Shown in pieces: positions 16,001 to 38,088 of a stretch of DNA of 64,000 bases. Where the stretch lies: positions 1 to 64,000 of IMG/VR virus record IMGVR_UViG_3300032893_000021; one strand, written 5' to 3'. Every line of letters begins with the position of its first letter. Position 1 is the stretch's first letter. This DNA is from a virus. The notes beneath the pieces are model-generated. The model saw only the letters and a program-made list of their open reading frames with translations. It made no database searches and was not told the DNA's origin. The position numbers and the translations under genes were made by a program.

Positions 16001-16842
16001 CGATGTTCAACGACTCGGCCCCGGCCGTCCTGCTCCGCGCGATCGAGGCGGAGCTCACGCGGCGCGGCGTCGACCTCGCCAAGTGGAACCCCGACCAGCC
16101 CCGCGACGACAGGGGGCGGTGGACGGCGGGCGGCGGCCCGTCCGGCGAGGTCCCGGTCGTCCAGGACACCCGGAAGATCGGCGACTTCCCGCAGGAGGTC
16201 CAGGACGCCGCCCGGTCGGTCACCGCGCGCGCCGCGGCCGCCGAGCCCAGGGTCACCGCAGACATGGCGCACATCGCGTCGGCCACCGGCGGGAACCTGA
16301 ACGAGCGCTTCACGGGGCCGGACGGCAAGGAGCACGGGACGCTCGACGCCGTCCTGAAGAGCGACAGCTCGACCGCCCGCAAGATCGCGGACGACATCCG
16401 CGACAAGGGGTACACGACGGCCCAGTCGGCGGCCCAGGTCTACGACGCCCTCCGGTACACGGTCACGTACCCGGCGGGCGAGTACGCCAAGGGGGCCGAG
16501 CGGGCGATGGACGACCTGAAGGCGGCCGGGTACGAGCCGCTGCGCGGCAAGGACTTCTGGAGCGACGCGAGCCAGGGGTACGCCGGGGTCAACACCGTCT
16601 GGGGCGACCCGCGCACCGGGCAGAGCTTCGAGGTCCAGTTCCACACCCCGGAGGCCCTCCAGTACAAGGAGGGCGTGGGGCACCCGGTCTACGAGGCCTG
16701 GCGCGCGCAGCCGGAGGGCTCGGCCGCCCGGGCGTACTACGACTCGAAGGTCAACGAGGCCTGGCAGCCGATCCGGGACGCGGTCCCCTACCTGGACGCG
16801 CTCAAGGACTTCATGACGGGGATGTTCCCGCCGCGGAACTAG
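13090..16842 (+). CDS. Portal protein fused to a ParB-like domain, a small Cys/Trp domain and a RelA/SpoT-like nucleotidyltransferase (start CTG 13090)
   Basis: Portal features (DQLVIDA, LELINGETIRP, YLPRNQRTWTPYGFSPIE, YFTDGTIPG, SIDEQRIDDGLDP) over about 13090-14650. ParB motif DPVVLV..IADGWHRTLGA at about 15250-15340. Synthetase motifs KSDSSTARKI, DALRYT, GYAGVN, FEVQFHT at about 16350-16650. Confidence 0.88.
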   Translation: MANPNAIAAGLAARAQAQGALAGPGSSPLTASYNQWVAGSPVGGAALPAPFYDFLAGAFGPLSPIQPMPVDVVPRDDEGRPLPRRWQYPVGWNLPVGQPGTEGYRLASYATLRRLADGYSVIRAMLNIRKNEMSGLNWDVGATGDAQSRTKGDKGAAKDQRSRAAEVVRWFKRIDSNYFGFQSWFEAGQEDQLVIDAVTLHPLPTRVKGKGLFGCGVAELELINGETIRPLVNIRGASPRFPEVAYQQYLWGVPRSDFAAMARDEDVEELAVDYGLDGVEPDAEYTRRELLYLPRNQRTWTPYGFSPIEMALIPVTIGIQRQGFLLDYFTDGTIPGVYVIAGESYVTPSQQRGLQDLINGIAGDVGQKHRAIVLPPGSKTEPQKDMTFQQAVDQAIVEQVAMILHIQPHEIGMVPGGRTSGLGGAGMAQVQQDSVVESRTEPERKWWKGKFDWLIQEVMGQEDLEWKWLDFEEEQDAEQKANADKADVSIGKRSIDEQRIDDGLDPWDLPLTKTPFVIGGPSGIIPLDPSVPPPAAPAPAGPGGAPGPGGSPAQGALAEALKPDGKDASKPRHDPAAALLSDKKKDRRKGRKELADRFADNLKDAVKDKPAVLGGAAGPGAALEPSSAGEGADKAKGATVADLMKWRTRYNDSKLPRIVHDYLLRSYPKGDIDWSEDPAIAWEFDPHVKLSDIDMARRPGGRDPSKVSAIADTVGKGASMDPVVLVEYETPDEAGLNIADGWHRTLGAEKAGEDEVPAFVGRGVPDKYRDLIDGRMQDDSGSKKKAALAELSVLGRYVRKHGSAEGFEARAMDPDVVRLFKAETARGETGPALERARRRVLKEGGNPQALRDWYNAGADGQIDWGSDGDFDQCVSVASNYMSDEDARGFCNLRHQDAVGGAPGTEKNFSVGSPLASGLAPYDLDTGERPAIGPRCTSCGAALFPGSADYGDGRCADCQISEDVQRRSPGEPMFNDSAPAVLLRAIEAELTRRGVDLAKWNPDQPRDDRGRWTAGGGPSGEVPVVQDTRKIGDFPQEVQDAARSVTARAAAAEPRVTADMAHIASATGGNLNERFTGPDGKEHGTLDAVLKSDSSTARKIADDIRDKGYTTAQSAAQVYDALRYTVTYPAGEYAKGAERAMDDLKAAGYEPLRGKDFWSDASQGYAGVNTVWGDPRTGQSFEVQFHTPEALQYKEGVGHPVYEAWRAQPEGSAARAYYDSKVNEAWQPIRDAVPYLDALKDFMTGMFPPRN

Positions 16843-17080: not shown

Positions 17081-17169
17081 GGACCTTCCTTCCCGCCCAG
17101 GCTCGGGGCTCGCGCCCTGGCGGCCTCGTCCGCCCGGCACCCCATCGTACCGCCCGCGCTCCCGGCTGG

Positions 17170-17553: not shown

Positions 17554-17594
17554 CTCGTGCCTCCTGCCCGGGGCCTCCGCCCCGTCGCGAGTCA

Positions 17595-17623: not shown

Positions 17624-17631
17624 CCCCCCTC

Positions 17632-18599: not shown

Positions 18600-18638
18600 C
18601 ACGCTGCCTCCTTGCCGGGGCGCTCGCCCCTCGAGGAC

Positions 18639-19469: not shown

Positions 19470-19471
19470 CG

Positions 19472-19927: not shown

Positions 19928-20422
19928 ATGGACGACGTGGACGCGATGACTGACCTGACGGCGCTCCCGACCGAGGCGCTGGTCGAGATCAGGGAGGCGC
20001 TGAAGTACAACCCCGACCAGCCGCGGGACGAGCGCGGGCGCTGGACGGCGGGCGACTCCACCGGCGCCGCCTGGGCCGACGCGAAGGCGCGGATCGCCGC
20101 CCACGGCCCCGGCAACTGCTACCCGGCCGCCGCCACCCTGGCGATGCGAGCCGACGAGCTCGGGCTCCGCAACGCGCGCGTCGTCCACGCCACATGCACT
20201 GGGCAGGGCGCCATCGCCGGGAAGGCGTTCGGCCACGCCTGGGTCGAGGCGGACGGCCCGCACGGCATCCGCGTGGCCTACGACTACAGCGGCGGCAAGG
20301 AGGTCGAGCTCCCGGCGTCGTTCTACCGGCAGCTCGGAGAGGCGCGCGGCGTCAGGGAGTACACGCCGCGTGAGGCGATGGTCCAGATGGTGAAGACGGG
20401 GCACTACGGGCCGTGGGCCTGA
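19928..20422 (+). CDS. Tagged cargo protein with a Cys-His-Asp (transglutaminase/papain-like) domain
   Basis: K|YNPDQPRDERGRWTAG tag, then GNCYPAA, FGHAWVE, VAYDYS. Confidence 0.65.
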   Translation: MDDVDAMTDLTALPTEALVEIREALKYNPDQPRDERGRWTAGDSTGAAWADAKARIAAHGPGNCYPAAATLAMRADELGLRNARVVHATCTGQGAIAGKAFGHAWVEADGPHGIRVAYDYSGGKEVELPASFYRQLGEARGVREYTPREAMVQMVKTGHYGPWA

Positions 20423-21900
20423 CCGGGCTGTTCACCGAGGCTGGCCGCGCCGGGGTCGCCCTGGCGCCGGACCACCGCGCGCGCGCCGAGGCGGCCAGGA
20501 CGCTCCGCTCGGACGCCCGCCGGGAGGCGACCCTCGCCCCGGTCGTCGAGCGCGTCCGGCGCGAGCTGCTGGAGGCGGCGCGCGAGGGCGCCGTCCTGCG
20601 CGAGCCGGTGGCCCGGAAGTTCGACCCGTCCGAGCCGCGGGACGAGCGCGGCGAGTGGACGGCCGGTGGAGAGGATTCGATCAGGACGGAACTATCGTCG
20701 GCGCGCGAGGCGATGGATGCGGCCAACGACGCGATGTACATGGCCGAGCAAGACGGAGACGACGACGCATACGACCGAGCGGCAGCAAGGTGGGCGGAGG
20801 CCAACAGCCGACACGAGGCCGCCGAGGACGCGCTGCGCGGGCTTGGCAAGCGCGACGGAGACAACCAGCATTCCGGATCTGCGACCAAGGCCGAGTGGGA
20901 CGAGGGGGCGCACCCCCGCGTCCCGGCCGGGCAGGAGGGCGGCGGGGAGTTCACGGACGGCGCGGGCGGCATGACGCTGGAGCGGTACCGCGACGAGCGG
21001 GCCCGGATGGAGGCCCTGACGGACGCCAACCGGGCGGAGCTCCGGGGCGGGTCCATGACCGGCCCCCCGCCGCGGACGGCGGCCGGTGTCGGCCCCCCGG
21101 CGGACGTGTGGGCGGCGTGGCACGAGCGTGCCGAGTACAACGTCGCCCAGGCGGCCGCCCAGCGCGGCGAGACGGCGGAGGAGTTCACATCGAAGCTCCA
21201 GGCCCAGGCGGCCGCCCTCGTCGACAAGTCTGACGTCAGGGTCCGGTGCACGCCGGACGTCCTCGGGAAGATCCTCGGGGACGGCAGGTTCAAGTCCCAG
21301 TTCGAGACGAGGACCTCGAACGGCCTGCTGAACCTGGCCACGCGCAGCGGCATGGAGACGCAGGCGTTCGGCTACGCGCCGCGCCTCGACACGTCCGCGC
21401 GCCCGGTCTACGGCTACATGAACACGCGCGGCCTGACCGGGGCCGACGAGGAGAAGAGCTTCTGGCTCCAGCAGTACGGCGGCGCGATCGTCCACCTCTC
21501 GGACGCCGTCCGGGACCGGACGACCTTCACGTTCGGCGACTCGCTCCCGATGTCGGGCGTGCCGTGCCCCGTCTCCGACCCGCGCTGGGAGGCGACCGAC
21601 CCGCAGTACGACCATCTCGGCTGGCACGTCGACCGGTCGTCCTTCCCGCCGGGGCTCGACTACTCGGAGCAGTACCCGGCCGCGTGGTCGTGGATGGTTC
21701 GGGAGGGGCCGGACGCCGACGCGGTCGCCGCGACGACGCCGTCCGGGGCCACGCTCGACTACATCGAGGCCCAGGTCCACGGCGGCGTCAGCGCCTCCGA
21801 CATCGCGTCGGTGGAGCTGCCGTCCGAGCCGGACCCGGCGCTCAAGGCGCTCCTCGACGGGGCGTCGATCCCATACACGGTGTACGGAGGCAAGTCGTGA
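20413..21900 (+). CDS. Doubly tagged protein with a C-terminal DUF3626-like domain
   Basis: Tags at 20617 and 20887. C-terminal GRFKSQFETRTSNG..RPVYGY..QYG..RTTFTFGDS..YIEAQVHGGV matches the DUF3626 pattern as recalled. Confidence 0.65.
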   Translation: MGLTGLFTEAGRAGVALAPDHRARAEAARTLRSDARREATLAPVVERVRRELLEAAREGAVLREPVARKFDPSEPRDERGEWTAGGEDSIRTELSSAREAMDAANDAMYMAEQDGDDDAYDRAAARWAEANSRHEAAEDALRGLGKRDGDNQHSGSATKAEWDEGAHPRVPAGQEGGGEFTDGAGGMTLERYRDERARMEALTDANRAELRGGSMTGPPPRTAAGVGPPADVWAAWHERAEYNVAQAAAQRGETAEEFTSKLQAQAAALVDKSDVRVRCTPDVLGKILGDGRFKSQFETRTSNGLLNLATRSGMETQAFGYAPRLDTSARPVYGYMNTRGLTGADEEKSFWLQQYGGAIVHLSDAVRDRTTFTFGDSLPMSGVPCPVSDPRWEATDPQYDHLGWHVDRSSFPPGLDYSEQYPAAWSWMVREGPDADAVAATTPSGATLDYIEAQVHGGVSASDIASVELPSEPDPALKALLDGASIPYTVYGGKS

Positions 21901-22357: not shown

Positions 22358-25300
22358 GTGCCCGACCTCCTCTCGGCGCTCCCGACCGCCGACCTCGCCC
22401 GCCTGCGCGCCGACCTGCTCCGCTACTCGGAGGACGAGGCGCGGGACGACAGGGGGCGGTGGACGGCGGACGGGGGTTCGGTGGACGTCGGGCCCGGCTT
22501 CCGCACGTCGGGCGTCCCGCGCGAGTACGGCGACCGCGTCCTGTCGACGGTGGGGCGCCTGTCGGCCCAGTTCCCCGGCGTCCGCATCGCGGTCGACGCC
22601 CGGACCGGCGACGACTTCCGGGCGACCTCGACCGGCAGGGACAAGCCGGGGACGGTGACGATCGCCCGATGCGAGGGCAACGCCCTGCGCGGCCAGACCA
22701 TCGTGCTCAACGGTGGCCAGGTGTCCCTCGACGACGTCAACCCCCTGACGGCCGTCCCCGGCCCCGAGGGCGTCGCGGCCCACGAGTTCGGCCACGCGGT
22801 CGACGCGTACATGATGACGGCCGGGGCCGGTCTCAAGGACCTCGGCGGGGACGCGATGCGCGACTACCTCGACTGGCGCCAGCGGCTCCTCTCGACGCAG
22901 GGCATCCGGGGCTTCGGGTCGTCCTACTTGACGGGGCGCCTCGACGCCTCGGGGAGGTACGAGCGGGTCCGCCTCGGGTGGTCGAAGCTGTCCTGGTACG
23001 CGGGCACCGACCCGCGCGAGGCCGTGGCGGAGGCGTTCAGCGCGGCGTACACGCCCGGCAGCCCGGGCTACGACCACCCGGCGTGCGCCGAGCTCCGCGA
23101 CGTGCTCGCGAGGGCCGGGTCGGCCGCTTCGGCGTCGGGCAAGGCCGTCAAGTTCGACGACTCCGAGGAGCGCGTCCCGGCCGGGTCGCCCAACGGCGGC
23201 CAGTGGACCTCCGGCGGCGAGGCGCTCGCGTCCGAGGCGGCGGCGTACGAGGCGCGGTGGCCGAACAAGGCGGTGCTCGACACGGTCCCCGAGGGCCTGA
23301 CGCCGGAGCAGACCGCGCTCCTCGCGTCGCTCGGGCTCGACAAGCCCCAGCCCGCGATCCAGCCGGACTTCGCCGCGATCGCCGACCCGCACCACGGCCT
23401 TGAGGCGGTCCGCGAACTCGCCCGGCTGCGCGAGGCGTTCCCGTCGATCCGCGTCTCGTCGCTGGAGATGCGGATGCCGTCGACGCTGATCAACTCGTCT
23501 CCGTCGGACGACCAGCGCGTCGTGGCCCGGACGGTCATCGACTCGATCGTGCTCAACCCCAACTGGTACGGCAAGGACGGGCCGTCCCTCGACCAGTTCT
23601 CGGACGGCGCCAAGTACCACCCCGACGGGTGCGGGACCCCGGCCGGGTGCATCACCCACGAGTTCGGCCACGTCCTCGACCACGCCCTCGAATACGACCA
23701 GACCGCCGCGGGCGAGGCGTACCGGCAGTGGCGCTCCGACTACCTCTCGTCGGGCACGCGCATCTCCGCCTACGCCCGCACGAACGAGTGGGAGGCGATC
23801 GCAGAGGTGTTCTCCGCCGCGTACGCCCCCGGCTCGCTGGCCACGGGCAACTGGGGCGCCGTCGGCCTCCGGGACGTCCTTTCCTCGACCGGCGTGTACA
23901 CGGGCAAGGCGGCGACGGCCGACCTCGCCAAGTGGAACCCCGACCAGCCTAGGGTACCCGCGGGCGAGCCAGGCGGCGGCCAGTGGGAGGGCGGCTCGCC
24001 GGTCGCCGGGGCGTTCCGGTCCGCGCTCGACGGGATGCCGAGGCCGTCCGGCTCGATCGCCGCCCAGGTCGCGTTCCACGACTGGTTCAAGCAGGCCTCC
24101 GGGGGCGACGGGCAGTGGGACGTCTCGGCGCTCTCGCGGCAGCCGGACACGGGGCGCTTCTCCGCCTCGATGGCCGTCCTCTCCGCCTCGTTCCCCGACG
24201 TCACGGGCGGCGTCGGCGTCAAGGTGACGGACGGCTACGCGATCCACGCCGGGGTCGGGACCGACGCCGTCGCGTGGGCCGACTCCCTCGCGTACCCGCA
24301 GACGGTGACGCTCGAGAAGATGATGTGGGCGACCGGGGCGACCCGGCTCCAGTGGGGCGACGAGGCGTCGAACGGCTTCCACCCCGAGGGCTGCTGGGCA
24401 CCCGAGGGCGTGGCCGCGCACGAGTTCGGGCACCTCGTCGACGCCGTGCTCCGCGACACGGCGGACGACGAGAGGGTCGCCGACCTGAACGCCTTCCTCC
24501 TGACCCACACCGCCTCGGGCTACGGCGCGCGGTCCGGCACCGAGAACTTCGCCGAGTGGTTCGCGGCCGCGTACTCCCCGACGTCGCCGCTGGCGGGCTC
24601 CGCCGACTGCCGCGACTTCCGGGCGATCGTCGAGTCGTCGATGGTCCGCAAGTACGACGCCAGCGAGGCGCGGGACGAGCGCGGCCGCTGGACGGCCGGG
24701 GGCGGCGGGCTCGACGGCCTGACGCTCCGGCTCGACGGCGTCCACCCCGACATCCGCCCGGGGCTGGAGTCGACGCTCGCCCGCATGGCCGACCGCTACC
24801 CCGTCCTCCGCGAGCGCGGCCTGATCGTCAACCGGCTCCCGACGATCGGCGGCGCCCTCGCCGACACGGCGTACCCGATGCCCCAGACGTTCTACAAGGC
24901 GTCCATCAACCTGAGCTCCGCGTACGAGCGACCCGGCGACCCGAGGTGGGCCGAGGAGCCCGGGTGGTCCGTGTCGCAGGGCCCCGAGGGCACGCTGGTC
25001 CACGAGATCGGGCATGCGCTCGACATGTACAACGGCGGCGCCGGGGCTCGGGCACTGGAGGCGTCCGGGCCGTCGCGGGGCGCGTACGGCGGGACCCGGT
25101 ACGGCACGGCGGCCTCGCTGTACGGCGCGACCGGCGGCCCCGACGAGCGGTTCGCCGAGGCGTTCGCGCAGGTCAACCTCGCGCCGGAGTCGGAGTGGTC
25201 GCCGGACGCCCGGATCGTCGCCGCGCTGTACCCGCCCGTCACCAAGGCCGCGGCGCCCGACTTGACCAAGTCGCTCCGGTTCCTCGACCGGGCGCGCTCG

Positions 25301-27181: not shown

Positions 27182-28094
27182 TCAGGGGCGGCGCCCCGTC
27201 ATCTCCGAGAGCCGGGCGGCCGTCATCGGCCCGGCCGTCCGGCCAGAGCATCCCTGGCACCTCCCGCCCGGCGTCCCGGGCCGGATCGTGACCATGCAGG
27301 ACGGGGACAGGCACCGCCGCGTCTCGCGCTCGACCCAGGCGCGCGCCCGGGCGGTCGAGCGCGCCCCCACGTAGCCTCCGTGGACCCTGCAGACCCAGAC
27401 GTCCGTCCGGCGGACGTACGGGCGCTCCGCGCGGGCCGCGGTCCCGGCCGGTACGACGCGCCACCACGGGGAGGCCGCGGGCCACCACGCCGAGCAGGCG
27501 GCGCACCATCTGACCTCCCGGCCGCCGACCGTCCGCGTCACGTCCGGGTCCCCGGCCGCCGGGACGGCTTCATCCAGACTGGGCGGCCGTACCGGGGCTC
27601 CGCCTCCCCCCCGGGCTCCGCCTCCCCGGGCTCCGCCGGGTCGTAGCCCTCGAGCCGGGCGAGCGCGCGGTACCGCTCCGGCAGGGAGCCAGCGTCGCCC
27701 GTGTCGAGGAAGCGGCGGATGGCCGCCGTCTCGGCCGGGGTATGGGCCCGGAAGGCCCAGCCGTGGACGACGCGGTTGCGGCGCCGCTGCTCCAGGGCGG
27801 CGGGCGAGCCCCTACCCGGCATCCCGGTCGCCTCCCTCGTCGTCCGGGTCGTCGGGGTCCGGCTGTCGGTCCGCCACCTCCTGCGCCCGAGCGAGCTGCG
27901 CGACGATCGGGTCGGGCCCCTCGGCCTCCCAAAGGCGCTGGCAGAGCTCCCACGCCTGGTCCTTGAGCCGCCCGGCGGCCTCGTTGCCGGGGCGGTTGTA
28001 GCCGCCGCGCCTCCATGCCTCGAGCCGCCGCCGCTGCCGGGCCTCGGCCCGGCGGGCGACGATCTGGAGGCGGCGCGCCGAGACCATGTCCATC
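27182..28094 (-). other. Three small minus-strand ORFs (28094-27812, 27822-27538, 27541-27182 Cys-rich)
   Basis: GGAGG/GGGAGG SDs; overlapping chain. Confidence 0.55.
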
Positions 28095-28109
28095 GTCCCC
28101 CTCCTCCTT

Positions 28110-28919
28110 CTACCGGGCCAGGACGAACGCTCGGGCCTTGTTGACGACCAGCGGGAGGTCGTCGGGGCCCTTGACGTAGGGGCTGATCCAGATCTGCCGG
28201 TGCAGGTTGAGCGTCGAGTACCACTGGTTCCGCCAGTGCCCGCCCACGATCCAGCGGTGGCTCCATTCGACGTGCCCGTGCTCGGGCTCGTGCTCCGGCC
28301 CCGCCGGTCGCCGGAGGCGGACCACCGTGACGTACTCGTGGGGCAGGCGAACCCGCTCCGCCCGGCGCAGATAGGCCCGCGGCGGGCGCTCCTTGGTCCA
28401 GACCGCCATGGTCTGGTTGAGCAGCCGCCAGACCGCCTGAACCTGCGTCTGGACCTTGAGGTGGCCACGGTTCGGGAGGCCCTCCGGGATCATCGCCCCG
28501 ATGTCCCAGAGGACGGTGTGAGTCGGCACCCAGCGGCTGGCCCGCCGGGCCTCCCGGGCCGCCGCCGGGTCCTGCGCGTCGAGTTCATCCGGGACGTCCT
28601 GATCGTGGTAGAGCGTCAGCATGACGCTGGCCCCGTTGGCCTGCCACGCGGCGACCGACCACGTCAGGGTGGCCGCCGGGACCTCCGAGCCGTCCACGCG
28701 GATGCGGACCTCGCCGGGCTCCGGTGTGATCGACAGCGGGCGGGGGAAGATGACGAGCCCGTTGCGGGTGATCAGGTCCTCCTCGATGAGCGGCTTGGGC
28801 CGGAAGCCGTCGATCGCGGCCTCGACCACCTTCATCATCTCGGGCTCGACCCAGACCGGCTCCGCGTTGAACACCCGGGTGGCCTCGGACCGGGCCCACC
28901 AGTCGGCCATCCAGATCAT
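28110..28919 (-). CDS. Phage hypothetical protein (HRWIVGGHWRNQWY..IWISPYVKGP); N-terminus possibly in the 29044-28916 frame
   Basis: Strong coding pattern; the C-terminal motif is recalled from other phage proteins. Confidence 0.65.
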   Translation of the reverse strand: MIWMADWWARSEATRVFNAEPVWVEPEMMKVVEAAIDGFRPKPLIEEDLITRNGLVIFPRPLSITPEPGEVRIRVDGSEVPAATLTWSVAAWQANGASVMLTLYHDQDVPDELDAQDPAAAREARRASRWVPTHTVLWDIGAMIPEGLPNRGHLKVQTQVQAVWRLLNQTMAVWTKERPPRAYLRRAERVRLPHEYVTVVRLRRPAGPEHEPEHGHVEWSHRWIVGGHWRNQWYSTLNLHRQIWISPYVKGPDDLPLVVNKARAFVLAR

Positions 28920-29047
28920 GCCCTCGCCGTCGACGTCCTGACCGCGGTGGCGGCCATCCATCTGCGGGCGAACCGCTCGCCCACGTCGCTCGCGAGGAAG
29001 TTGTAGATGTCGATCTGCACGTCGAGCGCGTCCTGCCAGCCCATCGC

Positions 29048-29930
29048 CTACGTCCCCCCGCCCACGCTGCGGGCGCTGGCGGCGAGCAGCGAGGCCTCGG
29101 GCACCGGCGCGTTGGCGGCCGGGTCGTAGTGGTCGAGGTCGCCCGCGACGATCGCGGTGAGGTCGAACGCCGCCCCGTAGGCGGCCTCCGCCTCGCGGCA
29201 CGCCGCCGAGTCGAGCCCGGCGTCCAGGAGCGCCATCGACGCCGCGATGTGCTTGCGGACGTCGGCAGCGGCCTTCCGCGCCTGCGCGCGGCGGTCCTTC
29301 CCGTTCTCCATCTCGTTCCTCCTCTGGCCGGGCCTCCCGGGCGCCAACGCCGTCGAGACGCGCGGCTCGCCCTGCTCGCCCGGGTCGCCGTCGGCGGCGT
29401 CGCGCACGAGCGCGTAGAGGCGCTCGCGCTCCTCCGGCGTGTAGGGCTCCTGCCCCGGCATCATCCCGTCTTCGGTCATCGGACCTGTCCCCCCCTCTCC
29501 GCGTCGCGCATCTCGGCGCGGTAGCGGCTGTCGTCCGGGGCCGCCCAGTAGGACTCGGGCGGCCCGTCCGGCTCGAACTCCGGCTCGGCGGGCTCGACGT
29601 CGAACCCGTCCGACCCGTCGCAGTCCGGGTCGTTGCAGTAGGCGATGACGCCCGTCGGGAACTCGCGGTGGGCCTCGTGGTCGAGGACCGCCTCGACGCC
29701 GCACGTCGGGCACTCGCGGCGCTCCGTCCACTCGCGGTCGGCGCCGCCGATCTGGTACTCGCGCCCGGTCACGCCGGGCGGGTAGTTCGACAGGGTCATC
29801 GCGCGGCCTTCCGCGCCAGCGCGAGAGCGAGCGCCAGGCGCCGCGTGATCGCGTCCGCGTAGGCCCGGCAGGCCGGGCACGTCGCGAGCGCGCCGCCCCC
29901 GTGGGGCTTGCCCGTGTGGCCAGATCCCAT
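29048..29930 (-). other. Small minus-strand early ORFs (29930-29796, 29799-29476, 29479-29048)
   Basis: Directly downstream of the minus promoter at 29976-30004; SD motifs and ATGA overlaps. Confidence 0.55.
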
Positions 29931-29975
29931 CATCGTCAACCTCCGTGACTGGGGCCTCCGCCCCGATCCGTCCAC

Positions 29976-30037
29976 AGCATAGCCGGTCCGCGGATCATTG
30001 TAAACCCCTTTACATAGGTTCCCAGACCGGCTATGCT
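29976..30037. promoter_or_regulatory. Back-to-back divergent promoters TTTACA-N17-TATGCT on both strands
   Basis: Core tgtaaacccctttaca at 29999-30014; both spacers are 17 nt; gene orientation flips here. Confidence 0.8.
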
Positions 30038-30082
30038 CGCGACGGAGCCCGGCGAGGGCCGGGCGCTCGAGGAGGAAGCTGG

Positions 30083-31773
30083 ATGGGCGGCACGAGCCTC
30101 GGCCCCTGCGGGTGCGACCTGCTGGAGGGCCGCTGCGCCCGGCATCGGGCGATGATGGAGGCGATCCACGACGCGTGGTACGGCCTGGTTCCGATGAGCG
30201 GCACGACAGACGCGATCTGGGCCCTGAGCGACGGCTACGGGACGCCGGGCTTCGTGCCCGCCCAAGGCCACGACTGGAGCGGCATCCGGGACAGCTCGAT
30301 CGGGGCCGTCGAGGCCATGTACGCGGCCGCCACGGGAGGCGCGCGATGAGCGCGGCTGGCGGTCGCGATCCGCTCTGGCCCGCCGGGGACCGCCCGATGT
30401 GCGGCGAGTGCAAGGCGGTCCCGGTCTACATGGCCGGACTCTGCGGAAGCTGCTGGGCCGCGAAGGGCCGCGCCGCGGCTGCCGTGACGTGCAGCGGGTG
30501 CGGCCACGCCCACCACTGGCGCGAGTGCCAAGCCGACGTGCTGGGGCTGCTGGGCACGGCCTACCGCTGCCCGTGCCGTAGACGCGGCCCGCGCGGGTCC
30601 GAGGGGCCGGAGGTCGGCGGGACGAGCATCCGCTCGACGCTCGGGGCAGCGGACGTGGTCCTCGGGGAGGTCGAGGAGCGCACCTGGACGGTCGTCCAGC
30701 ACGAGGTCGACGGCTTCCCGGTCCCGGGCTCGACCGGCCGCCGGGAGGTCAGCCGCGAGGTGCGCTTCGCCTTCCGGCTCGAGGCGGAAGCCTGGGCCGA
30801 GGCGCAGCGCGCGGAGGGGTTCACCGAGTTCCACTTCAGCCACACCGCCTGCGGGTACTACGGGCCGACCGACTCGCTCGGGAACTGCTGGACCGCCACG
30901 GCGCGCCGCCGGATCGCCCGCTCGGGTGACCGGGTCGAGGTCGTTTGGCCCGGCAGCGCCTTCGAGGGGCGGACCGGGGTCGTCGAGCAGGCGTTCGACG
31001 AGACGGCCAACGTCGTCCTCGACTCGCCCGGCGTCCGCGAGCCACACATGAACTTCGGGCTCCAGGAGCTGCGGGTCCTCGACGAGGCCTGGGAGGACAA
31101 CATGGAGAGGTTCGCGAGGGGCGACTCATGACGGACACCCTGTTCGGCATCGCCGCCGTCGCGGCGATCGCGTACACCGTGACGGACCTCGTCCGGCGGC
31201 TCGACCGCTGGCTCGACCGCAAGACCGGGATGACGGCGCGCTGGAGCCCGCCGCGGCAGGCGCACCGGGGACGGCGGAGGTGAGCGTCAGCAGGTCCTGC
31301 GACCGCTGCCGCATGGCGCGCCAGCGCGTCCTGGACGGGCGCCCGGTCAGCGTCGTCCGGCGGTACACGATGTCGGTCCAGGTCCCCGGCGGCGGGGCCC
31401 GCTACGGCTTCGGCGCCATCGACCTGTGCGACGAGTGCTGGGAGGAGGTCTGCCAGCCGAAGCAGCGCCCGACGCGCGGGACGCCGCGCAAGCACCCGTC
31501 GATGCTGGGGGCCGGGCGATGAGCCGCCGCCCGCTCCCGCCGGTCCGCTCGACCCACACCGGGGTCGCCGAGGCGGACGCCGCCTGCTCCGACTGCCAGT
31601 TCACGGCCGAGGGCAAGAACGCGCTCGGCCTCGGGAACGTCCACGCGCGCCGGACCGGGCACGAGGTGGTCTGCTCCCAGACGATCGTCGCGGTCTACAA
31701 CCGCAACGACGGAGCCGGGGCGCCCGAGCGCCGGGGCGCCGCGACGGACAGGCTGTTCGGAGACGTGCCGTGA
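30083..31773 (+). other. Plus-strand early island ORFs (30083-30349, 30346-31131, 31128-31283, 31280-31522, 31519-31773), several Cys-rich
   Basis: GAGGAGG SD at the start; continuous ATGA/GTGA overlaps. Confidence 0.6.
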
Positions 31774-32516
31774 GGGTCCTCTGCGGCTGGACGGACCTTC
31801 AGCCCGAGACGCGCGCCGCGCTCGACTCCTCGGGCTACCCCGTCGAGTACGTCGACTGCCGTGGCGACCAGTCGCGCTACCACGGCGCGCTCGAGGCGGC
31901 GTGGAGGGTCGGCGGCGACCTCGCCGTGGTCGAGCACGACATCGTCCCGTGGCCCGGCGCCCTCGCGGAGCTCGAGGCCTGCTGGCGCTCCTGGTGCGCG
32001 TTCCCGTACGAGCTGTCGGTCGGCTACGGGTCGTGGCTCGGCTGCGCCCGGTTCTCGGCCAGCCTGCTCGACGCGGTCCCGGACGCGCCAGCGGCCGTCG
32101 ACCGGCTGCGCGACGACGGGACGCCCCGGCGCTACTGGGCGCGCCTCGACACCCGGCTGGCCCAGGTCCTCGAGGCGAACGGGCACCGGCAGCACCAGCA
32201 CTGGCCAGCGGTCGGGCACCTCAACCCGGCCCAGAGGTTCCTCGGGGCGGTCAACTGCTCGGCATGCGGGGCGCCGGTCCCGCCCGAGCAGATGCGCCTC
32301 GGGCCGCCGCCGTACGCCTGCCGGTCCTGCGGCTGGACGCCGCGCTGCGCCGAGTCGGTCTACCGGCGCGGAGAGCGCCTGCCGTGCCCGAACAGGGCCC
32401 GTATGATTGCGCTCGGCTCGCCGGGCGCCGCATGGACTCCCCTCTGCGGGACCCACGAGAACACCGACCGCTGGGCCAACTACCCGGACATCGACTGGAG
32501 GCCCGTCACGGCGTGA
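31770..32516 (+). CDS. Glycosyltransferase-like (minimal GT-A) protein with C-terminal Zn ribbon
   Basis: VVEHDIVPWPG..WCAFPY..LGCARFS..LD..HQHWP; paralogous to 54199-54891. Confidence 0.6.
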   Translation: MRVLCGWTDLQPETRAALDSSGYPVEYVDCRGDQSRYHGALEAAWRVGGDLAVVEHDIVPWPGALAELEACWRSWCAFPYELSVGYGSWLGCARFSASLLDAVPDAPAAVDRLRDDGTPRRYWARLDTRLAQVLEANGHRQHQHWPAVGHLNPAQRFLGAVNCSACGAPVPPEQMRLGPPPYACRSCGWTPRCAESVYRRGERLPCPNRARMIALGSPGAAWTPLCGTHENTDRWANYPDIDWRPVTA

Positions 32517-32986
32517 GGATCGAGATAGGCGGCGGCGCCGTCCCCGTCGACGCGACCACGATGAACCTCGACCCCGTCCACGGGGAGGGCGAGTGGAGGC
32601 GTCCTGCCCAGGACGTCCCGTGGCCCTGCGAGGACGGGACGGTCGAGTCGGTCCGCGCCTCCCACGTGATGGAGCACGTCCCGGCCGCGGACCGGATCGC
32701 CGTGTTCAACGAGGCGTGGCGCGTCCTCCGGCCCGGCGGCTCGTTCGAGGTCGTCGTCCCGATCCTGTCGGCGTCGCTCGGGCCGTCCGGCCAGGTCTTG
32801 TTCGACTGGGGGGCGCTCGCCGACCCGACCCACGTGTCACTCTGGGTCCGGGAGTCGTTCGCCTACTTCACGGGCGCGATCCGCCCCAACGCCGAGTACG
32901 GCATCTCGCTCTGGCGCGAGCAGTCCTGGAGGGTCGAGCGCCAGCCGTTCGGCGACGAGGGGCACTGGACCGGGGTGAAGCCGTGA
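32513..32986 (+). CDS. Class I SAM-dependent methyltransferase
   Basis: IEIGGG..WPCEDGTVESVRASHVMEHV..EAWRVLRPGG..DPTH. Confidence 0.85.
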   Translation: MRIEIGGGAVPVDATTMNLDPVHGEGEWRRPAQDVPWPCEDGTVESVRASHVMEHVPAADRIAVFNEAWRVLRPGGSFEVVVPILSASLGPSGQVLFDWGALADPTHVSLWVRESFAYFTGAIRPNAEYGISLWREQSWRVERQPFGDEGHWTGVKP

Positions 32987-33762
32987 CCGTGGCGGCCGTC
33001 TCGATGGTCAAGGACGAGGCCGACTTGATCGGGGCCGCCGTCCGGCACATGATCGACCAGGTCGACCTCGTCATCGTCGCGGACAACGGCTCGACCGACG
33101 GGACGCGGGACGAGCTCTCCGACCTCGCCCGCGCCTACCCGGGCTGGCTGGAGGTCGTCGACGAGCCGCGGGCGGCGTACCTCCAGGCCGAGACGATGAA
33201 CCGCCTCGCCGAGCGGGCCGCCGGGGCCGACTGGATCGTGCCGTTCGACGCTGACGAGCGGTGGGAGGCAGTCTCGTCCTGCTGCGTCTCGTCCCTCCTC
33301 GACGGGCTCCCGGAAGCAGTCCAGATCGTCGCGGCCGAGACGTACGACGTCGTCCCGGCGCCCGGGGCGGAGCCGTGGGGCGGACCTCTCCTCCACCGTC
33401 CGGGGTCGCTATGGGAGCTGCCGGGCCACGGCAAGGTCGCCTACCGGCCCGGGTCCGGGCGGCGCCTCGTCCAGGGGAGCCACGCCGTGGAGGGGCTCGC
33501 GACCCCGTCCCCGGACGGCTCGCTCCGCGTCCTCCACCTGCCGTTCCGGTCGCTCGAGCAGGCGCGGCGCAAGCTGCGCAACGGCAAGGCGGCCGTCGAG
33601 GCGGCCGGGGAGGCGCTTCCGCCCTCGTCCGCGTGGCACTGGCGCGAGTGGGGCGCGCTCGACGACGAGGCCCTCGCCGCGTGGTGGGCGGACTGGACCC
33701 GCCCGGAAGGCCTGGAGCCCGTCCCGTGGAGGGGGCCGCGCGAGCAGGAGGCGATGCCGTGA
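32983..33762 (+). CDS. GT2-family glycosyltransferase
   Basis: MVKDEADLI..VADNGSTDGT..ADWIVPFDADE. Confidence 0.88.
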   Translation: MTVAAVSMVKDEADLIGAAVRHMIDQVDLVIVADNGSTDGTRDELSDLARAYPGWLEVVDEPRAAYLQAETMNRLAERAAGADWIVPFDADERWEAVSSCCVSSLLDGLPEAVQIVAAETYDVVPAPGAEPWGGPLLHRPGSLWELPGHGKVAYRPGSGRRLVQGSHAVEGLATPSPDGSLRVLHLPFRSLEQARRKLRNGKAAVEAAGEALPPSSAWHWREWGALDDEALAAWWADWTRPEGLEPVPWRGPREQEAMP

Positions 33763-34325
33763 CGCCCGAGGTGATGGCCTTCGTCCGGTCAGCCCTGCCG
33801 GGCGACCTCGTCCGCGGCCGCGACGTCCTCGAGGTGGGGTCGCGGGACGTGAACGGCTCGCCGCGCCACTACCTCAAGTCACTCTCCCCGGCGTCGTACA
33901 TCGGCGTTGACGCGGTCGACGGGGACGGGGTCGACCTGGTCCTCCAGGCCGAGGGCCTGGAGGCGCACTTCGGAGCGGACCGGTTCGGGGTCGTCGTCTC
34001 GACCGAGATGCTCGAGCACGCCGAGGACTGGAGGACGGCGCTCCTCGGGATGATGGCAGTGGCGGCCCCGGGCGGCGTCCTCGTCCTGACGACCCGGTCC
34101 CCCGGCTTCGACCGGCACGAGTGGCCTGGTGACTACTGGAGGTTCACGACCGCCGACCTCGCGGCCGCCCTCGACGGGTGGATCGGCGTCGTCTCGGTCC
34201 CGGACCCGTACTACCCGGGCGCGTTCGCCTCGGCCCGCAAGCCGGAGCCGTGGGACCGCGCCCGCGCCGCCGGGCGGCTCGAGTCCGTCCTGCCCAGCCC
34301 GGCCCCCGAGGAGGAGACGCCGTGA
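33759..34325 (+). CDS. Class I SAM-dependent methyltransferase
   Basis: VLEVGSRDVNGS..YIGVD..GVDLV..STEMLEH..PGGVLVLT..DYWRFT. Confidence 0.85.
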   Translation: MTPEVMAFVRSALPGDLVRGRDVLEVGSRDVNGSPRHYLKSLSPASYIGVDAVDGDGVDLVLQAEGLEAHFGADRFGVVVSTEMLEHAEDWRTALLGMMAVAAPGGVLVLTTRSPGFDRHEWPGDYWRFTTADLAAALDGWIGVVSVPDPYYPGAFASARKPEPWDRARAAGRLESVLPSPAPEEETP

Positions 34326-34732
34326 AGATCCTATGGCACCCGACCTGCGGCGGGGTCGTCGCGCCGCCCGAGGACGGCGCCTGGGCCCTCTGCCGCTGCG
34401 GCAACAGCGCCATCCGGCTGGTCGACCGGACCCGCGTGGTCGCCGAGGCCGCCTCCCGAGACGGCTCGCGGGACGCCCGCATCATCGGCCTCCACAACGG
34501 GTACCTCAACGCCGGGGTCGGGGAGGCCCTCTCGGACCTGTCCTGGAGGACACGCTGGGCGCTCGCCCGCTCGATCACGCCAGACCACTACTTGTACGCC
34601 AGGCGGGAGAGCCCGCTCGTCGTCTTCGAGCCCGGCGAGACGTACGACTCGTCGTGGAGCGAGTGGCCCGAGCCTGTCGCCCTGGGCCCACTGTTCTTTC
34701 CGTCGGATCCGGGCCGCGGACGAGTCCCTTGA
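34322..34732 (+). CDS. Hypothetical protein
   Basis: GAGGAG SD, GTGA overlap; HxxC..CxCG. Confidence 0.55.
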   Translation: MKILWHPTCGGVVAPPEDGAWALCRCGNSAIRLVDRTRVVAEAASRDGSRDARIIGLHNGYLNAGVGEALSDLSWRTRWALARSITPDHYLYARRESPLVVFEPGETYDSSWSEWPEPVALGPLFFPSDPGRGRVP

Positions 34733-35403
34733 TCTCCTCCTACGCCGTCGCCACGCCCAGCCGCGGGCTGATCCACTCGCGGACGGTCGAGGCAGTGGCG
34801 CGCGAGTCGGCCGACACGCCCGGCTTCACGGGATGGGCGATCACGCACGACCTGCCGATACCGCTCGCCCACGAGCAGGCCGTCGCCTCGGCGATCGGGC
34901 GCTGGCTCCCGGAGGCGGTCATCATGGTCGAGGAGGACGTGATCCCGCCCGAGGGCTCGTTCGGGGCGCTGCTCCTCGCACTCGAGGCGGGGGCCGACGT
35001 CGCCGGTGTCGACTACCCGGTCGGAGAGGACTGGGGCTGCGCGGTCCGCGACGAGGCAGGGGCGGTCCTATGGGTCGGGACCGGCCTGGCGGCCCTGTCC
35101 GTCCCCGCCCTCGAGCGCCTAGAGCGGCCGTGGTTCAGGACGGACCGCCGCTGGCTCAGGGGCCCCGACGGCGGCTGGCACGACGTCCCGGCGGCGCCCG
35201 ACGAGCGCGACCGCTTCGGCCAGCAGGACATAGAGCTCTGCCGCCGGGTCCGCGAGGCGGGCGGCCGCGTCTCGGTCGTCCCCGGGATGACGGCCGCCCA
35301 CGCCCAGGTCCGCGGGATGGGGCGCCAGGGCTCCAACGTCGGCTGGCACGACGTCCGCCTCAGGACCGAGATCCGCGAGCAGTACCCGGGGGACCGCGGA
35401 TAG
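34729..35403 (+). CDS. Glycosyltransferase-like (GT-A) protein
   Basis: TTG start; VATPSRG..MVEEDVIPP..VGTGLA..PWF..QQDIELC. Confidence 0.7.
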   Translation: MISSYAVATPSRGLIHSRTVEAVARESADTPGFTGWAITHDLPIPLAHEQAVASAIGRWLPEAVIMVEEDVIPPEGSFGALLLALEAGADVAGVDYPVGEDWGCAVRDEAGAVLWVGTGLAALSVPALERLERPWFRTDRRWLRGPDGGWHDVPAAPDERDRFGQQDIELCRRVREAGGRVSVVPGMTAAHAQVRGMGRQGSNVGWHDVRLRTEIREQYPGDRG

Positions 35404-35472: not shown

Positions 35473-38088
35473 CTGGCGACGCGGGCCGGTAGGGGCGACG
35501 ACATCGAGTACGGCTGGGTCCCGATCGTCAAGGTCGAGCGGGACCCGCTCGACCCGTCGGTCAGGATCGTCTACGGGAAGGTGACCGACGGGACGGTGGA
35601 CTCGGACGAGCAGATCGTCGACCCCGAGTACGCCCGGAAGGCGATGGCCGACTGGTACGAGACGGCCGCGAACGTCCGACAGATGCACAGCACGAACCTG
35701 CCACCGGCGGGCAAGGGCATCATGCTTGAGCACCGCGACGGGGACGGGGCCGAGGGCGGCGAGTGGGTCCGGTCCCGCGTCGTCGAGCCGACCGCGGTCA
35801 AGCTCTGCGACGAGGGGGTGTACGGCGGCTACTCCGTCGGGATCGCCCGGCCCCGGATCGTCCGTGACGCCCGGGCCCGCGGCGGGCGCATCGTAGGCGG
35901 GCGCATCGTCGAGATCAGCCTGGTCGACCGGCCCGCCAACTACAACGCCAAGTTCGCCCTGGCGAAGGCCGACCGGTCCGGCAGGATGGCCTACGTCGGG
36001 AAGGTCGTCTCGCTCCGGCCCGCCGAGGTGGACCCGGCGCCGCGCGCGCCGCGCATCCGCGAGGGCTCGGTCATCAAGATCACCGAGGCCGACGGCTCAG
36101 TCGCCACGGGGCGCGTCGTCACGGCCGGGGCGCGCTGGGCGCGCATCGACACGCTCGGCTACGGCGGGACCGGGATCGAGCTAGTGGACCGGCGGGGCGC
36201 GAGCGTCGAGAAGTACAGCGACTCACAGGAGCGCGACGACCACGGGCGCTGGTCCGGAGGTGGCTCGGGCGAGGGCACCCGGTCATGGCAGGACAGGGTC
36301 CCACCGGCCCACCAAGGGCGCGAGGGGCACGATGTCCACCTCGTCCTCAACGGCGGGGCCAACGTTCGCGGCACGGTGTCGTCGGTGACGCCCGACAAGA
36401 CAGTCTTCCGGACGGGAGCCACGACGGCCGGGTCGAGCCCCGGCATGAGGACGAACGGGGATCCCCCCCAGACGTACGTCGACCACTCGGAAGTGGCCCA
36501 GATCAAGGACTACACGACCAACGAGCGCGTGAGCCCGAACAACATCGTACTCGGCACAGTCAAGGCGCAGGCGGGGCCTAATCCGGCCGACATGGAGGAC
36601 TCTGTGGCAGACGACGCGGACACCACCAAGGGGGCCGACCTCGCGTCTGCCGCCGAGAACATCGCCGACGCGGCGGACGACCTCAAGGACGCGGCCGGGG
36701 ACCTCGGCGACACGGCCGGTGGGGACGACTCGGACGACGGGGACGACTCGGACGCCGACAAGGCGGCCAAGGGCAAGGTCCCGCCCCAGTTCCTGGAGCA
36801 CCAGAAGCCGAAGGCTGGCGCCGACGCACCGGCCGACGGCGCTGCGGACGACGACTCCGCCGACAAGGCCGCGGGCCGCAAGTGCCCGTCCTGCGGCGGG
36901 ATGTTCGGCGACTCGGACAAGTGCGTGAAGTGCGGCAAGGCCTGGACGACCGACGGCACCGACGACGCCGAGAAGGCCGAGCGCAAGGCGGCCAAGGCCG
37001 CGCGCAAGGCCGCCAAGGCCGCGGCGGCCAAGATCGTCGCGGCGCCCGGCGACGGCGAGGAGGTCTCCTACCTCGTCCGGCGCGCGCACGACGTCACCTG
37101 CGGAGCATACGGGACGGACGCGCTGGCGGCCGCCTACCCGTCCGTCGAGAAGAGGCTCGGGGACGCGCTCGGCGCGTCCGCCCGCGACGCGGCCTACGCG
37201 GCCCTCGCGTCCGAGGTCCGGGAGGGCGGGACGCCAGCGGGCATCGTGGCGCTCGGCAAGGCCATCTCCGCCCTCGACGCCCTGTCGGGGCACGCCGAGG
37301 CGCTCGCCGCGGCCCGCGAGGGCCTCGTCGAGGCGTTCCGCGCGGCCAACAAGGACGCCGCCGAGCCGGTCGGGCTCCCGAGCCCGTCCGAGACGATCAC
37401 GCCCGGCCAGTTCCGGCGCGGCTACATCTCGGAGGGCCACCAGGACCAGGGCGGCACGGGCCACCCGCACGCGACGATCCCGTCTGCCACCCACCCGCTG
37501 GACCCCGCCTCGATCGACCGCGGTCCGCTGACGGACGGGCACCAGCGCTACCTGGCCTCCAAGATGGCCGAGGTCCACGACGGCCTCGCCGACTGGAGGC
37601 CCGAGCTCTGCCTGATGGACGCCGGTGGCTCGAACGCCTTCGACCGGCAGCCGTACCCGTCGCCGTCCCAGAGGCCGCCCGCCCTGCCGTCGATCCCCAA
37701 CCGGTCGGCGGACTCCGGCCCCGTCCCCGTGGTCGCCGTCCCGGCCGCGGCGCCCGTCGCCAAGACGTACACCCCCGAGGAGTTCGAGGCGGCCCTCTCG
37801 AAGGCCACCGCGCCCCTCGCCACCAAGATTGCCAACCTGGAGCAGGCGTACGAGGACCTCGCGTCCTCGCCTGACACGACGGCCGCCGCCCCGCGCGGGC
37901 TCCGGCAGCCGTCGGCCTCGGACAAGCTGGCCACCGCAGACGCCGCCAAGGCCGCGCGCAAGGCGCGGAAGGCGGAGAAGCGCTCGCGGCGCGCCGGTTT
38001 CTACGAGGACCTGGCAGGCTCCTCCGACCCCGTCACCCGGAACCGAGCGGTCGACTGGCTCGCCCGCCACGGCCGGTCCATCAACTGA
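35473..38088 (+). CDS. Prohead protease (HK97-type) fused to a tagged insert and a scaffold region (start CTG 35473)
   Basis: DSDEQIVD..VRQMH (His)..YGGYSVGI (Ser)..EISLVDRPAN. Acidic and KA-rich scaffold-like C-terminal half, with an internal GGAGG-GTG at 36604. Confidence 0.85.
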   Translation: MATRAGRGDDIEYGWVPIVKVERDPLDPSVRIVYGKVTDGTVDSDEQIVDPEYARKAMADWYETAANVRQMHSTNLPPAGKGIMLEHRDGDGAEGGEWVRSRVVEPTAVKLCDEGVYGGYSVGIARPRIVRDARARGGRIVGGRIVEISLVDRPANYNAKFALAKADRSGRMAYVGKVVSLRPAEVDPAPRAPRIREGSVIKITEADGSVATGRVVTAGARWARIDTLGYGGTGIELVDRRGASVEKYSDSQERDDHGRWSGGGSGEGTRSWQDRVPPAHQGREGHDVHLVLNGGANVRGTVSSVTPDKTVFRTGATTAGSSPGMRTNGDPPQTYVDHSEVAQIKDYTTNERVSPNNIVLGTVKAQAGPNPADMEDSVADDADTTKGADLASAAENIADAADDLKDAAGDLGDTAGGDDSDDGDDSDADKAAKGKVPPQFLEHQKPKAGADAPADGAADDDSADKAAGRKCPSCGGMFGDSDKCVKCGKAWTTDGTDDAEKAERKAAKAARKAAKAAAAKIVAAPGDGEEVSYLVRRAHDVTCGAYGTDALAAAYPSVEKRLGDALGASARDAAYAALASEVREGGTPAGIVALGKAISALDALSGHAEALAAAREGLVEAFRAANKDAAEPVGLPSPSETITPGQFRRGYISEGHQDQGGTGHPHATIPSATHPLDPASIDRGPLTDGHQRYLASKMAEVHDGLADWRPELCLMDAGGSNAFDRQPYPSPSQRPPALPSIPNRSADSGPVPVVAVPAAAPVAKTYTPEEFEAALSKATAPLATKIANLEQAYEDLASSPDTTAAAPRGLRQPSASDKLATADAAKAARKARKAEKRSRRAGFYEDLAGSSDPVTRNRAVDWLARHGRSIN

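Follow-up and report, generated by a model that had tools for sequence, protein, structure and literature searches.

The first 64,000 bp of IMG/VR virus record IMGVR_UViG_3300032893_000021 (hereafter the window; the record is a single contig of 89,286 bp with about 74% G+C) encode, in five proteins of the head-gene region, ten copies of a peptide of about 25 residues, referred to here as the tag, which stands ahead of one protein module after another. The tag is very probably tied functionally to capsid cargo. The preferred reading of its role, to which a probability of roughly 45% is given, is that of a prohead-protease processing site that would separate the modules of the "polyvalent" proteins of the phage head.

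Ten copies of the tag in five head-module proteins

Six-frame regular-expression scans of the window and of the whole record found the ten peptides, all on the plus strand and in the long frames, rich in G+C at third codon positions, of five open reading frames (ORFs). This agrees with an earlier, sequence-only reading of the window, which had listed ten in-frame copies in the same five genes by the codon of the lysine or arginine ahead of each; the codon of the aromatic residue lies 3 bases further on, except at 20887, where the lysine is followed by A-E-W. A loose pattern matched ten times in the five proteins, compared with a mean of 0.209 (maximum 3) in 2,000 residue shuffles, and the six-frame pattern matched 17 times in the real record, compared with 4.05 ± 2.01 (maximum 10) in 200 first-order Markov simulations. 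Four of the seven additional six-frame matches lie in frames with a third-position GC of 0.63–0.77, the other three (0.83, 0.85, and 0.93) in open frames of 218, 491, and 83 amino acids (a.a.), and none of the seven carries the Q/E-x-R-D core of the tag. A chance origin of the ten tags is excluded.

A profile of the ten tags matches no ORF of the record beyond these five. The claim that tail genes are free of the tag also holds, as none occurs past 36.3 kb of the record, and so none in the tape measure or other tail genes. The two subtypes that had been distinguished (A and B in Table 1) are both present, but in alignment they form a single motif, subtype B differing from subtype A by a loop that is 5 residues longer, between R-x-x-x-G and (Q/E)(W/F).

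Anatomy of the tag

The tag is sharply bounded and spans about 25 residues: hydrophobic-x-K and an aromatic residue are followed by xxx(Q/E)xR, by a turn whose last residue is G, by (R/Q/E)(W/F), and by a glycine-rich run. Its anatomy was resolved in a sample of 443 canonically spaced tags from 119 proteins. Counted from the aromatic residue, identity between the tags of one protein is at background (0.06–0.09) up to -6 and again from +20 onward. Because identity falls to background outside these limits, the modules flanking the tags are unrelated rather than duplicated, and the tag is a discrete unit of about 25 residues. Within this unit, a universal core comprises Q/E at +4, P at +5, R at +6, D at +7, G at +10, R/K at +11, and W/F at +12, followed by T/S-x-G-G-G. 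Positions -3 to +3, on the other hand, are 1.3- to 3.3-fold more alike within than between proteins, with identities of 0.72 and 0.36, respectively, at -1, 0.30 and 0.09 at -3, and 0.61 and 0.33 at +1. By these values, each protein, and hence each phage, has an N-terminal edge of its own, as would be expected of a phage-specific recognition edge next to a common core.

The two flanks of the tag differ in composition. The sequence is ordinary and folded-like up to -1, and positions +15 to +24 are rich in Gly, Ser, Pro, and Thr (0.63 and 0.38, against a background of 0.27), so the tag abuts the preceding sequence and is flexibly tethered to the following one. In an AlphaFold2 (AF2) model of residues 1–265 of the MuF polyprotein, the leader forms a helix (residues 10–22), the tag has a predicted local distance difference test (pLDDT) score of 53–63 with one bridge between residues 29 and 35 (the R and W positions), and residues 37–48 are disordered; at this confidence no structure can be assigned to the tag.

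Among the window tags, 82 of 139 codons at identical residues are the same, which, compared by eye with a per-residue codon-usage table, looks about what codon usage allows. Because synonymous codons differ among these tags, it is the peptide, rather than a DNA cassette, that is under selection; homogenisation at the DNA level, or a recombination cassette, was ruled out on the same ground. The residues of the tag are conserved from low-GC to 74%-GC genomes.

The tag as a header

In 201 tagged proteins, the aromatic residue of the first tag lies within the first 60 residues in 119, including 11 proteins in which it lies at residues 6–10; it never lies at residues 1–5. Behind the last tag, 121–500 residues follow in 170 proteins, and 60 or fewer in only 4. 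The median spacing from tag to tag is 236 a.a. (interquartile range 177–296, n = 388). Because first tags cluster near the N-terminus and last tags are rarely near the C-terminus, the topology decides for a header, with one tag ahead of each module, and proteins that lack a head-anchored N-terminal domain start with a short leader and a tag. That each copy opens a new module, as the sequence-only reading had proposed, is borne out by this topology, here and in thousands of other phage proteins. The converse arrangement, in which the tag is a trailer of the preceding module (there is no linker ahead of it and a glycine-rich one behind), was considered and is ruled out by the same counts (119/201 versus 4/201).

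The leaders follow a different pattern from the core. In the window, a leader of the form ALPTxxL...R..L.[KR]Y is found at the N-termini of ORF 19928 and of the MuF polyprotein, and again ahead of the last module of the latter. Leaders are likewise similar within a phage in the IMG/VR loci L064 and L036, and the sole homologue of ORF 19928 (P0126) has kept the tag and the module behind a different leader. Judging by these cases, leaders are phage-specific, alike within a phage and different between phages even for orthologous modules. L064 (7.6 kb, minus strand) contains at least six consecutive tagged ORFs, five of 176–201 a.a. and one of 582 a.a.; of four leaders compared there, three are homologous and about 35–45 residues long, and one is shorter and different. 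This locus is the split-gene counterpart of a polyvalent protein.

Linkage to head genes

Tagged ORFs in IMG/VR have genes for portal, MuF-like, protease, and major head proteins as neighbors, or are portal fusions themselves. A sample blind to the tag consisted of 80 prophage loci retrieved by means of the protease, each taken with at most 10 kb on either side (1,293,517 bases in total). All 11 tags scoring at least 15 bits, in 8 loci, are on the strand of the protease, between -2064 and +1551 nt of the start of the protease domain, and none was found elsewhere in the 80 loci at that score. Together with the absence of the tag from the rest of the window locus, these data uphold the proposed tie to portal, MuF, and protease genes.

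Of 120 homologues listed for the protease-scaffold protein, one of which is that of the window itself, 11 have a tag (10 of the 119 others), either after the protease domain or N-terminal, before it. Because so few homologues carry it, and at varying places, the tag with its module is an optional insert. The earlier picture of a "plug-in" system fits both this distribution and the exchanged leader of P0126.

Tagged proteins in databases

For the database searches, a profile was built from an alignment of 58 tags. A degenerate DNA pattern for R-D-(D/E)-R-G-R-W gave at least 123 matches in at least 120 IMG/VR loci; 28 of the listed matches have the full upstream context by regular expression, and many tagged IMG/VR ORFs hold 2–5 copies. 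Among 8,000 scored candidates from a set of 5.8 billion proteins, the profile matched 591 at E ≤ 1e-3. An exhaustive hidden Markov model (HMM) scan of 1,835,955,588 cluster representatives yielded 5,862 at E ≤ 1e-3, 1,027 at ≤ 1e-10, and 104 at ≤ 1e-30. The highest copy number is 17 tags, in one protein of 7,334 a.a.

Among the best 119 hits from named databases, by a hand count in which most family names were checked and a few are presumed assignments of ours, Phage_Mu_F is found in 15, Phage_portal in 3, Portal_Mu in 1, and Peptidase_S78 in 2 (20 proteins in all). An ADP-ribosyltransferase family (ADPrib_exo_Tox or ART-PolyVal) is present in 32 of them, and Zeta_toxin, GNAT families, ParB-type, 2H phosphoesterase, InPase, LPD1, DUF7178, DUF3626, and NUDIX are also represented; 42 have no Pfam hit. 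ART-PolyVal, InPase, LPD1, and Phage_Mu_F pass their cut-offs in tag carriers other than those of the window. The first three bear the mark of polyvalent proteins in their Pfam names or descriptions, and InPase is handled as a polyvalent-protein domain in the main text of Iyer et al. (2017; PMC5512222). Because of this mark, the tag carriers are identified with the phage-type polyvalent proteins of that study.

A tblastn search of the 25-a.a. tag against 50,697 phage records returned six weak records, including Mycobacterium phage Barnyard and Nocardia phage P3.1. Barnyard gp16 (L122, 8337–8972) and the P3.1 proteins (L121, 11989–12699 and 11478–11816) are small and very basic, with the tag directly behind M-A and M-A-R-R-K, respectively. 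They are annotated as "head/capsid maturation protease", and no protease motif is visible in them. The tagged gene is followed by a JAB/M67-type peptidase gene in both phages, and then by a MuF-like gene in Barnyard. The label is probably wrong, and these look like tagged internal head proteins.

Modules behind the tags

Five modules of the 1448-a.a. MuF polyprotein carry the motif HExxH(xxD), and their Pfam zincin hits are below cut-off. The Pfam lead for these modules is ATLF (E 3.2e-4, below cut-off), and their weak matches are to M34-type zincins (lethal-factor-like proteins and Pro-Pro endopeptidases) and matrix metalloproteinases, a lead at the level of the fold. For the AF2 model of residues 1–265 (pLDDT 65.8), Foldseek returned weak zincin matches only (best E 7.7e-3). 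The MuF-like Cys-rich region occupies about residues 1065–1150 of 1448, where phrog_595 and phrog_2662 give C-terminal hits (1065–1150). The zincin and MuF domains of the window are thus seen only as motifs, PHROG hits, and sub-threshold Pfam hits. PF04233 hits occur in four of five tagged virus records, all below cut-off, and so do not bear on whether MuF is an obligatory companion of the tag. Close architectural homologues of the polyprotein are P0011 and P0015.

The C-terminal 252 a.a. of the portal (16084–16839) match the solved small alarmone synthetase SaSAS (PDB 8vx3) at E 6e-14, as well as the C-terminal region of the NCBIfam XopAD/skwp family, and this last module can be assigned by homology to the RelA/SpoT-type nucleotide pyrophosphokinases. 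The DUF3626 module of ORF 20413 has a Pfam E-value of 3.8e-12. The module of ORF 19928 may be transglutaminase-like (Transglut_core3, E 0.0084, below cut-off), and its look-alikes in the atlas are mostly viral hypothetical proteins. What follows the two remaining tags is non-enzymatic: in ORF 20413 it is an acidic helix, in the protease protein a small beta module. The claim that eight of the ten tags lead to an enzyme domain thus holds only loosely: besides the DUF3626 and synthetase-like modules, it counts five zincin-like modules that stay below Pfam cut-offs and give weak fold matches, and that of ORF 19928, which is only a lead. Two or more effector-type domains in one polypeptide are found in ORF 22358–26704 (five HExxH modules and the MuF-like region), and the portal bears its small-alarmone-synthetase-like module.

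The prohead protease

The assignment of a head protease in the same gene cluster as the tagged ORFs holds, by its predicted fold and by its conserved residues. His68 and Ser117 are invariant in an alignment of 61 protease sequences. The AF2 model of the domain (pLDDT 83.6) has T4 gp21 (PDB 5jbl) as its best Foldseek match (probability 1.00, TM-score 0.60–0.67), followed by herpesvirus proteases, and Pfam Peptidase_S78_2 reaches only E 0.023. The prohead protease protein itself bears a tag between modules. A co-fold of the protease domain with the tag gave a score of 0.00 in a run without controls, which is evidence neither way.

The homology of the protease (a stretch ...YGWVPIVKVE...VYGKVTDG) starts upstream of the first in-frame ATG/GTG/TTG codon (35581, where the public protein record begins), by 96 nt or more. 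The frame is open from a TAG at 35401–35403, and the start options between 35404 and 35581 are CTG (35452, 35467, and 35473) and ATC (35503, 35524, and 35566). Because only CTG and ATC codons are available in the upstream homologous stretch, a non-canonical start codon, or else a sequence error, is the probable explanation. The C-terminal two thirds of the protein (36600–38088) contain an acidic, KA-rich stretch and a CxxC...CxxC zinc ribbon. Sixty aligned homologues share the strongly conserved His/Asp/Cys motifs R-x-HD-x-TCAAY, PG-x-F-x-RPYISAGH, GPLT-x-GH, and HD...P-x-LC-x-M in the C-terminal region, which looks like a conserved domain rather than plain scaffold.

What the tag may do

According to the preferred reading, a module would reach the head by fusion to a head-anchored domain (portal, MuF, or prohead protease) or by a short phage-specific N-terminal leader. 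The head-assembly machinery would then read the tag, and the assemblin-fold prohead protease would cut at its phage-specific edge, removing the leader or anchor and separating the modules. The freed modules, typically 180–300 residues long and each starting at or near the tag core, would be loose inside the capsid and could leave with the DNA. Processing of polyvalent proteins is predicted in the main text of Iyer et al. (2017; PMC5512222). There is also precedent in T4-type and phiKZ-type heads, which are described as cutting internal and ejection proteins at a shared motif.

In the sequence-only reading, the peptide was called post-lysine and the cut placed at Lys. A lysine directly precedes the aromatic residue in 8 of the 10 window tags (tag 5 has R, tag 4 K-A-E-W) and in 429 of 777 tags family-wide (55%). 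An HK97-type cut after Lys would place lysine at -1 in all sites. Lys or Arg at -1 or -2 is found in 568 of 777 tags (background expectation 0.22), and 127 of 777 have neither at -4 to -1; these counts lean towards K, since the profile itself contains K. Lysine ahead of the tag is a majority habit, then, but not a rule, and a cut exactly after it is doubtful.

Several further observations weigh against a processing site. The searchable literature gave no cleavage, packaging, or ejection data for any tagged protein. The sequence ahead of the tag is folded-like up to -1, and a cut before the aromatic residue would abut structured sequence. In some proteins the tag is preceded by only 2–10 residues (2–5 in Barnyard gp16 and P3.1; 11 of the 201 proteins are of this kind), a leader whose removal would hardly serve a purpose. 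Two proteins (P0012 and P0111) end 1 residue past the tag match and a third (P0082) ends 10 residues past it, as if a gene had been split or frameshifted at the junction. None of seven head proteins of halovirus HCTV-5 and cyanophage PSS2 contains a tag, so not all polyvalent proteins are tagged, and only the 10 of 119 protease homologues mentioned above are. The tag is modeled with the low to moderate confidence given above, and no docked structure was seen. A pure cleavage site fits these observations no better than a core with a role of its own, such as in binding, exit, or turnover.

The strongest of the other explanations, though a rather unlikely one, is a binding signal without cleavage. 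The tag would load or retain its module by docking it on a head component (the inner capsid surface, scaffold, portal, or MuF), or would prime exit through the portal, and the polyproteins would stay whole. Short conserved peptides on flexible tethers that bind HK97-fold shells and direct cargo into them include the cargo-loading peptides of encapsulins and the targeting tail at the C-terminus of the HK97 protease; we know of no sequence likeness between these and the tag. Such a role would account for tags placed anywhere (internally, 2–10 residues from the N-terminus, or at the extreme C-terminus), for the flexible tether behind them, and for a peptide that is weakly structured alone in AF2. 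The main text of Iyer et al. (2017; PMC5512222) also has N4 virion RNA polymerase and some plasmid polyvalent proteins travelling uncleaved. However, modules fused to the portal cannot leave the capsid uncut, loading would not call for several tags on one anchored protein, and a core invariant across phyla is hard to square with fast-evolving capsid surfaces.

An improbable extension of the processing reading is a general two-part cargo code of tailed phages, in which a leader or anchor is combined with a universal core read by the protease, and the exposed aromatic N-terminus with the R-turn-W hairpin would serve a second time, once assembly is over, as an exit signal through the portal or a timer. 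N-terminal Tyr, Phe, and Trp are bacterial N-degrons.

Still less probable is a different peptidase as reader, either the zincin-like metallopeptidases of the polyvalent proteins or a JAB/MPN peptidase encoded after the tagged gene. Zincin-like peptidases interspersed in polyvalent proteins have been proposed, in the main text of Iyer et al. (2017; PMC5512222), to process them. Each of the five zincin-like modules of the window adjoins a tag, HExxH is found in 57 of 119 tagged proteins, and an M67/JAB-type gene follows the tagged gene in Barnyard and P3.1, the tag ending in a GGG run. On the other hand, the remaining 62 of the 119 have no HExxH, and five paralogous zincins in one protein resemble diversified effectors more than one processing enzyme.

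That the tag is a junction without a reader, a conserved structural linker or a recombination scar easing domain shuffling, is very unlikely. In its favor, the tag lies exactly at module boundaries, modules are swapped between phages, and the ends of two proteins, within one residue of the tag match, look like gene splits at that point. Against it, synonymous sites are not homogenised, genomes ranging from low GC to 74% GC keep the residues, only head-module genes carry the tag, the Pfam accessions of the 119 best hits include none recognised as a conjugation (relaxase or type IV secretion) family, and an inert linker would not hold about 12 near-invariant positions.

Relation to known systems

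The closest known class is that of the phage-type polyvalent proteins (Iyer et al., 2017, PMC5512222; Iyer et al., 2022, PMC9503650). As described in the main texts, effectors are fused to MuF, portal, and the capsid-processing serine peptidase, with multiple interspersed zincin-like peptidases. Like the window proteins, these combine several effector-type domains in one polypeptide among head genes, with HExxHxxD zincins and the same fusions, and their packaging, processing, and injection are predicted. However, searches of the two main texts found no conserved inter-domain peptide, although the supplementary alignments may show one.

In MuF polymorphic toxins (Jamet et al., 2017; PMC5576092), MuF is likewise a capsid-associated carrier of variable toxic domains encoded within the region for head morphogenesis. 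In those proteins, an N-terminal MuF domain is described with one C-terminal toxin and an immunity gene, whereas the MuF-like region of the window is internal, flanked by zincin-like modules, five in all. A search of that paper found no mention of a linker, cleavage, a conserved motif, or a junction.

The T4 capsid targeting sequence with gp21 processing, and the cleaved ejection proteins of phiKZ/SPN3US-type heads, offer another parallel, in that a short N-terminal leader is described as directing proteins to the prohead, where an assemblin-fold protease cuts a shared motif; the window protease has the gp21 fold. The cut motif is L/I-x-E in T4 and S/A/G-x-E in phiKZ, both unlike the tag, and L/I-x-E is absent from the tag consensus. 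Moreover, the conserved part of the window peptide lies after the presumed cut and is common to several phyla.

Motif-string and topic searches, and term searches inside papers, found no description of the tag, which the supplementary alignments of Iyer et al. (2017) may nonetheless show, and no Pfam, PHROG, or NCBIfam model covers it. The tag itself appears to be undescribed. To call the whole a new system, as the sequence-only reading did, was an overstatement, since the class, and the idea of effectors packaged in heads and processed there, had been published (Iyer et al., 2017, 2022). What is new here comprises the split between edge and core by position, the differing flanks, the counts behind the header topology, the test around the protease made without regard to tags, the optional-insert pattern, the likeness of leaders within a phage, and the structural confirmation of the protease.

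Gene layout and host

The tagged ORFs are surrounded by head and packaging genes (Table 1), that is, by the terminase, portal, protease (35.5 kb), capsid-like (38.3 kb), and tape measure (57.1 kb) genes. In the stretch between the MuF polyprotein and the protease (27200–35400), only 29476–29994 (minus strand) and 30004–31131 (plus strand) passed a strict third-position GC filter. The virus has no match among the 50,697 phage records by megablast of 12 kb or by tblastn of the MuF polyprotein, and no relatives of that polyprotein were found in GTDB. The host is probably an actinomycete, because the nearest cellular relatives of the head protease (at most 52% identity) are in prophages of Actinomycetota (Actinoallomurus, Streptomyces, Arthrobacter, and Amycolatopsis).

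Table 1. Tags and surrounding genes of the window (positions in bp; the fourth column gives the first base of the aromatic codon).
Feature	Position	Strand	Aromatic codon	Description
Large terminase	2187–4160			Profile search
Portal with C-terminal extension	13012–16842	+		Pfam Phage_portal and phrog_2662; core, extra modules, tag, small-alarmone-synthetase-like module
Tag 1, subtype A	16081–16137	+	16084	Portal; K, then WNPDQPRDDRGRWTAGGG
Stand-alone protein, 164 a.a.	19928–20422	+		25-residue leader helix, tag, one Cys-His-Asp-type module
Tag 2, subtype A	20003–20053	+	20006	ORF 19928; K, then YNPDQPRDERGRWTAG
495-a.a. protein	20413–21900	+		Leader, tag, short acidic helical segment, tag, DUF3626 module (phrog_8314)
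Tag 3, subtype A	20617–20670	+	20620	ORF 20413; K, then FDPSEPRDERGEWTAGG
Tag 4, subtype B	20887–20952	+	20896	ORF 20413; K-AE-WDEGAHPRVPAGQEGGGEF; an additional residue ahead of R, and two separating K from W
MuF polyvalent protein, 1448 a.a.	22358–26704	+		Four tagged HExxH(xxD) zincin-like modules, MuF-like Cys-rich region, fifth tagged zincin-like module
Tag 5, subtype A	22421–22477	+	22424	MuF polyprotein; R, then YSEDEARDDRGRWTADGG
Tag 6, subtype B	23150–23206	+	23153	MuF polyprotein; K, then FDDSEERVPAGSPNGGQW
Tag 7, subtype B	23930–23986	+	23933	MuF polyprotein; K, then WNPDQPRVPAGEPGGGQW
Tag 8, subtype A	24650–24706	+	24653	MuF polyprotein; K, then YDASEARDERGRWTAGGG
Tag 9, subtype B	25955–26011	+	25958	MuF polyprotein; K, then YSEDQPRVPAGSAEGGEF; leader-like helix ELPTPTLLRVAAVLRK ahead
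Prohead serine protease domain, assemblin/S78-like fold	35485–36030	+		Alignment, AF2, Foldseek
Protease-scaffold-like protein, from first GTG	35581–38088	+		Protease domain, small beta module, tag, small beta module, acidic/KA-rich region with zinc ribbon, conserved C-terminal region
Tag 10, subtype A	36211–36264	+	36214	Protease-scaffold protein; K, then YSDSQERDDHGRWSGGG
Capsid-like gene	about 38.3–39.9 kb			phrog_13692, function unnamed
Tape measure	57148–61047			Profile search

Significance

How the proteins carried by phages are chosen, loaded, separated, and ejected is known for a few model phages, and is a prediction for polyvalent effectors and for those fused to MuF or portal. A sharply bounded tag, found on thousands of modules from several bacterial phyla and only in head-gene clusters, turns the cargo question into one that can be tested on a defined peptide. 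If the two-part code were true, an N-degron timer would clear injected toxins soon after infection, and a leader plus tag placed on any protein would lead to its loading into, and delivery from, such capsids. The tag is also of use in annotation: with it, giant phage ORFs can be divided into modules, unknown domains can be marked as probable injected effectors, and likely misannotations come to light, such as that of the small basic "capsid maturation protease" in Barnyard and P3.1.

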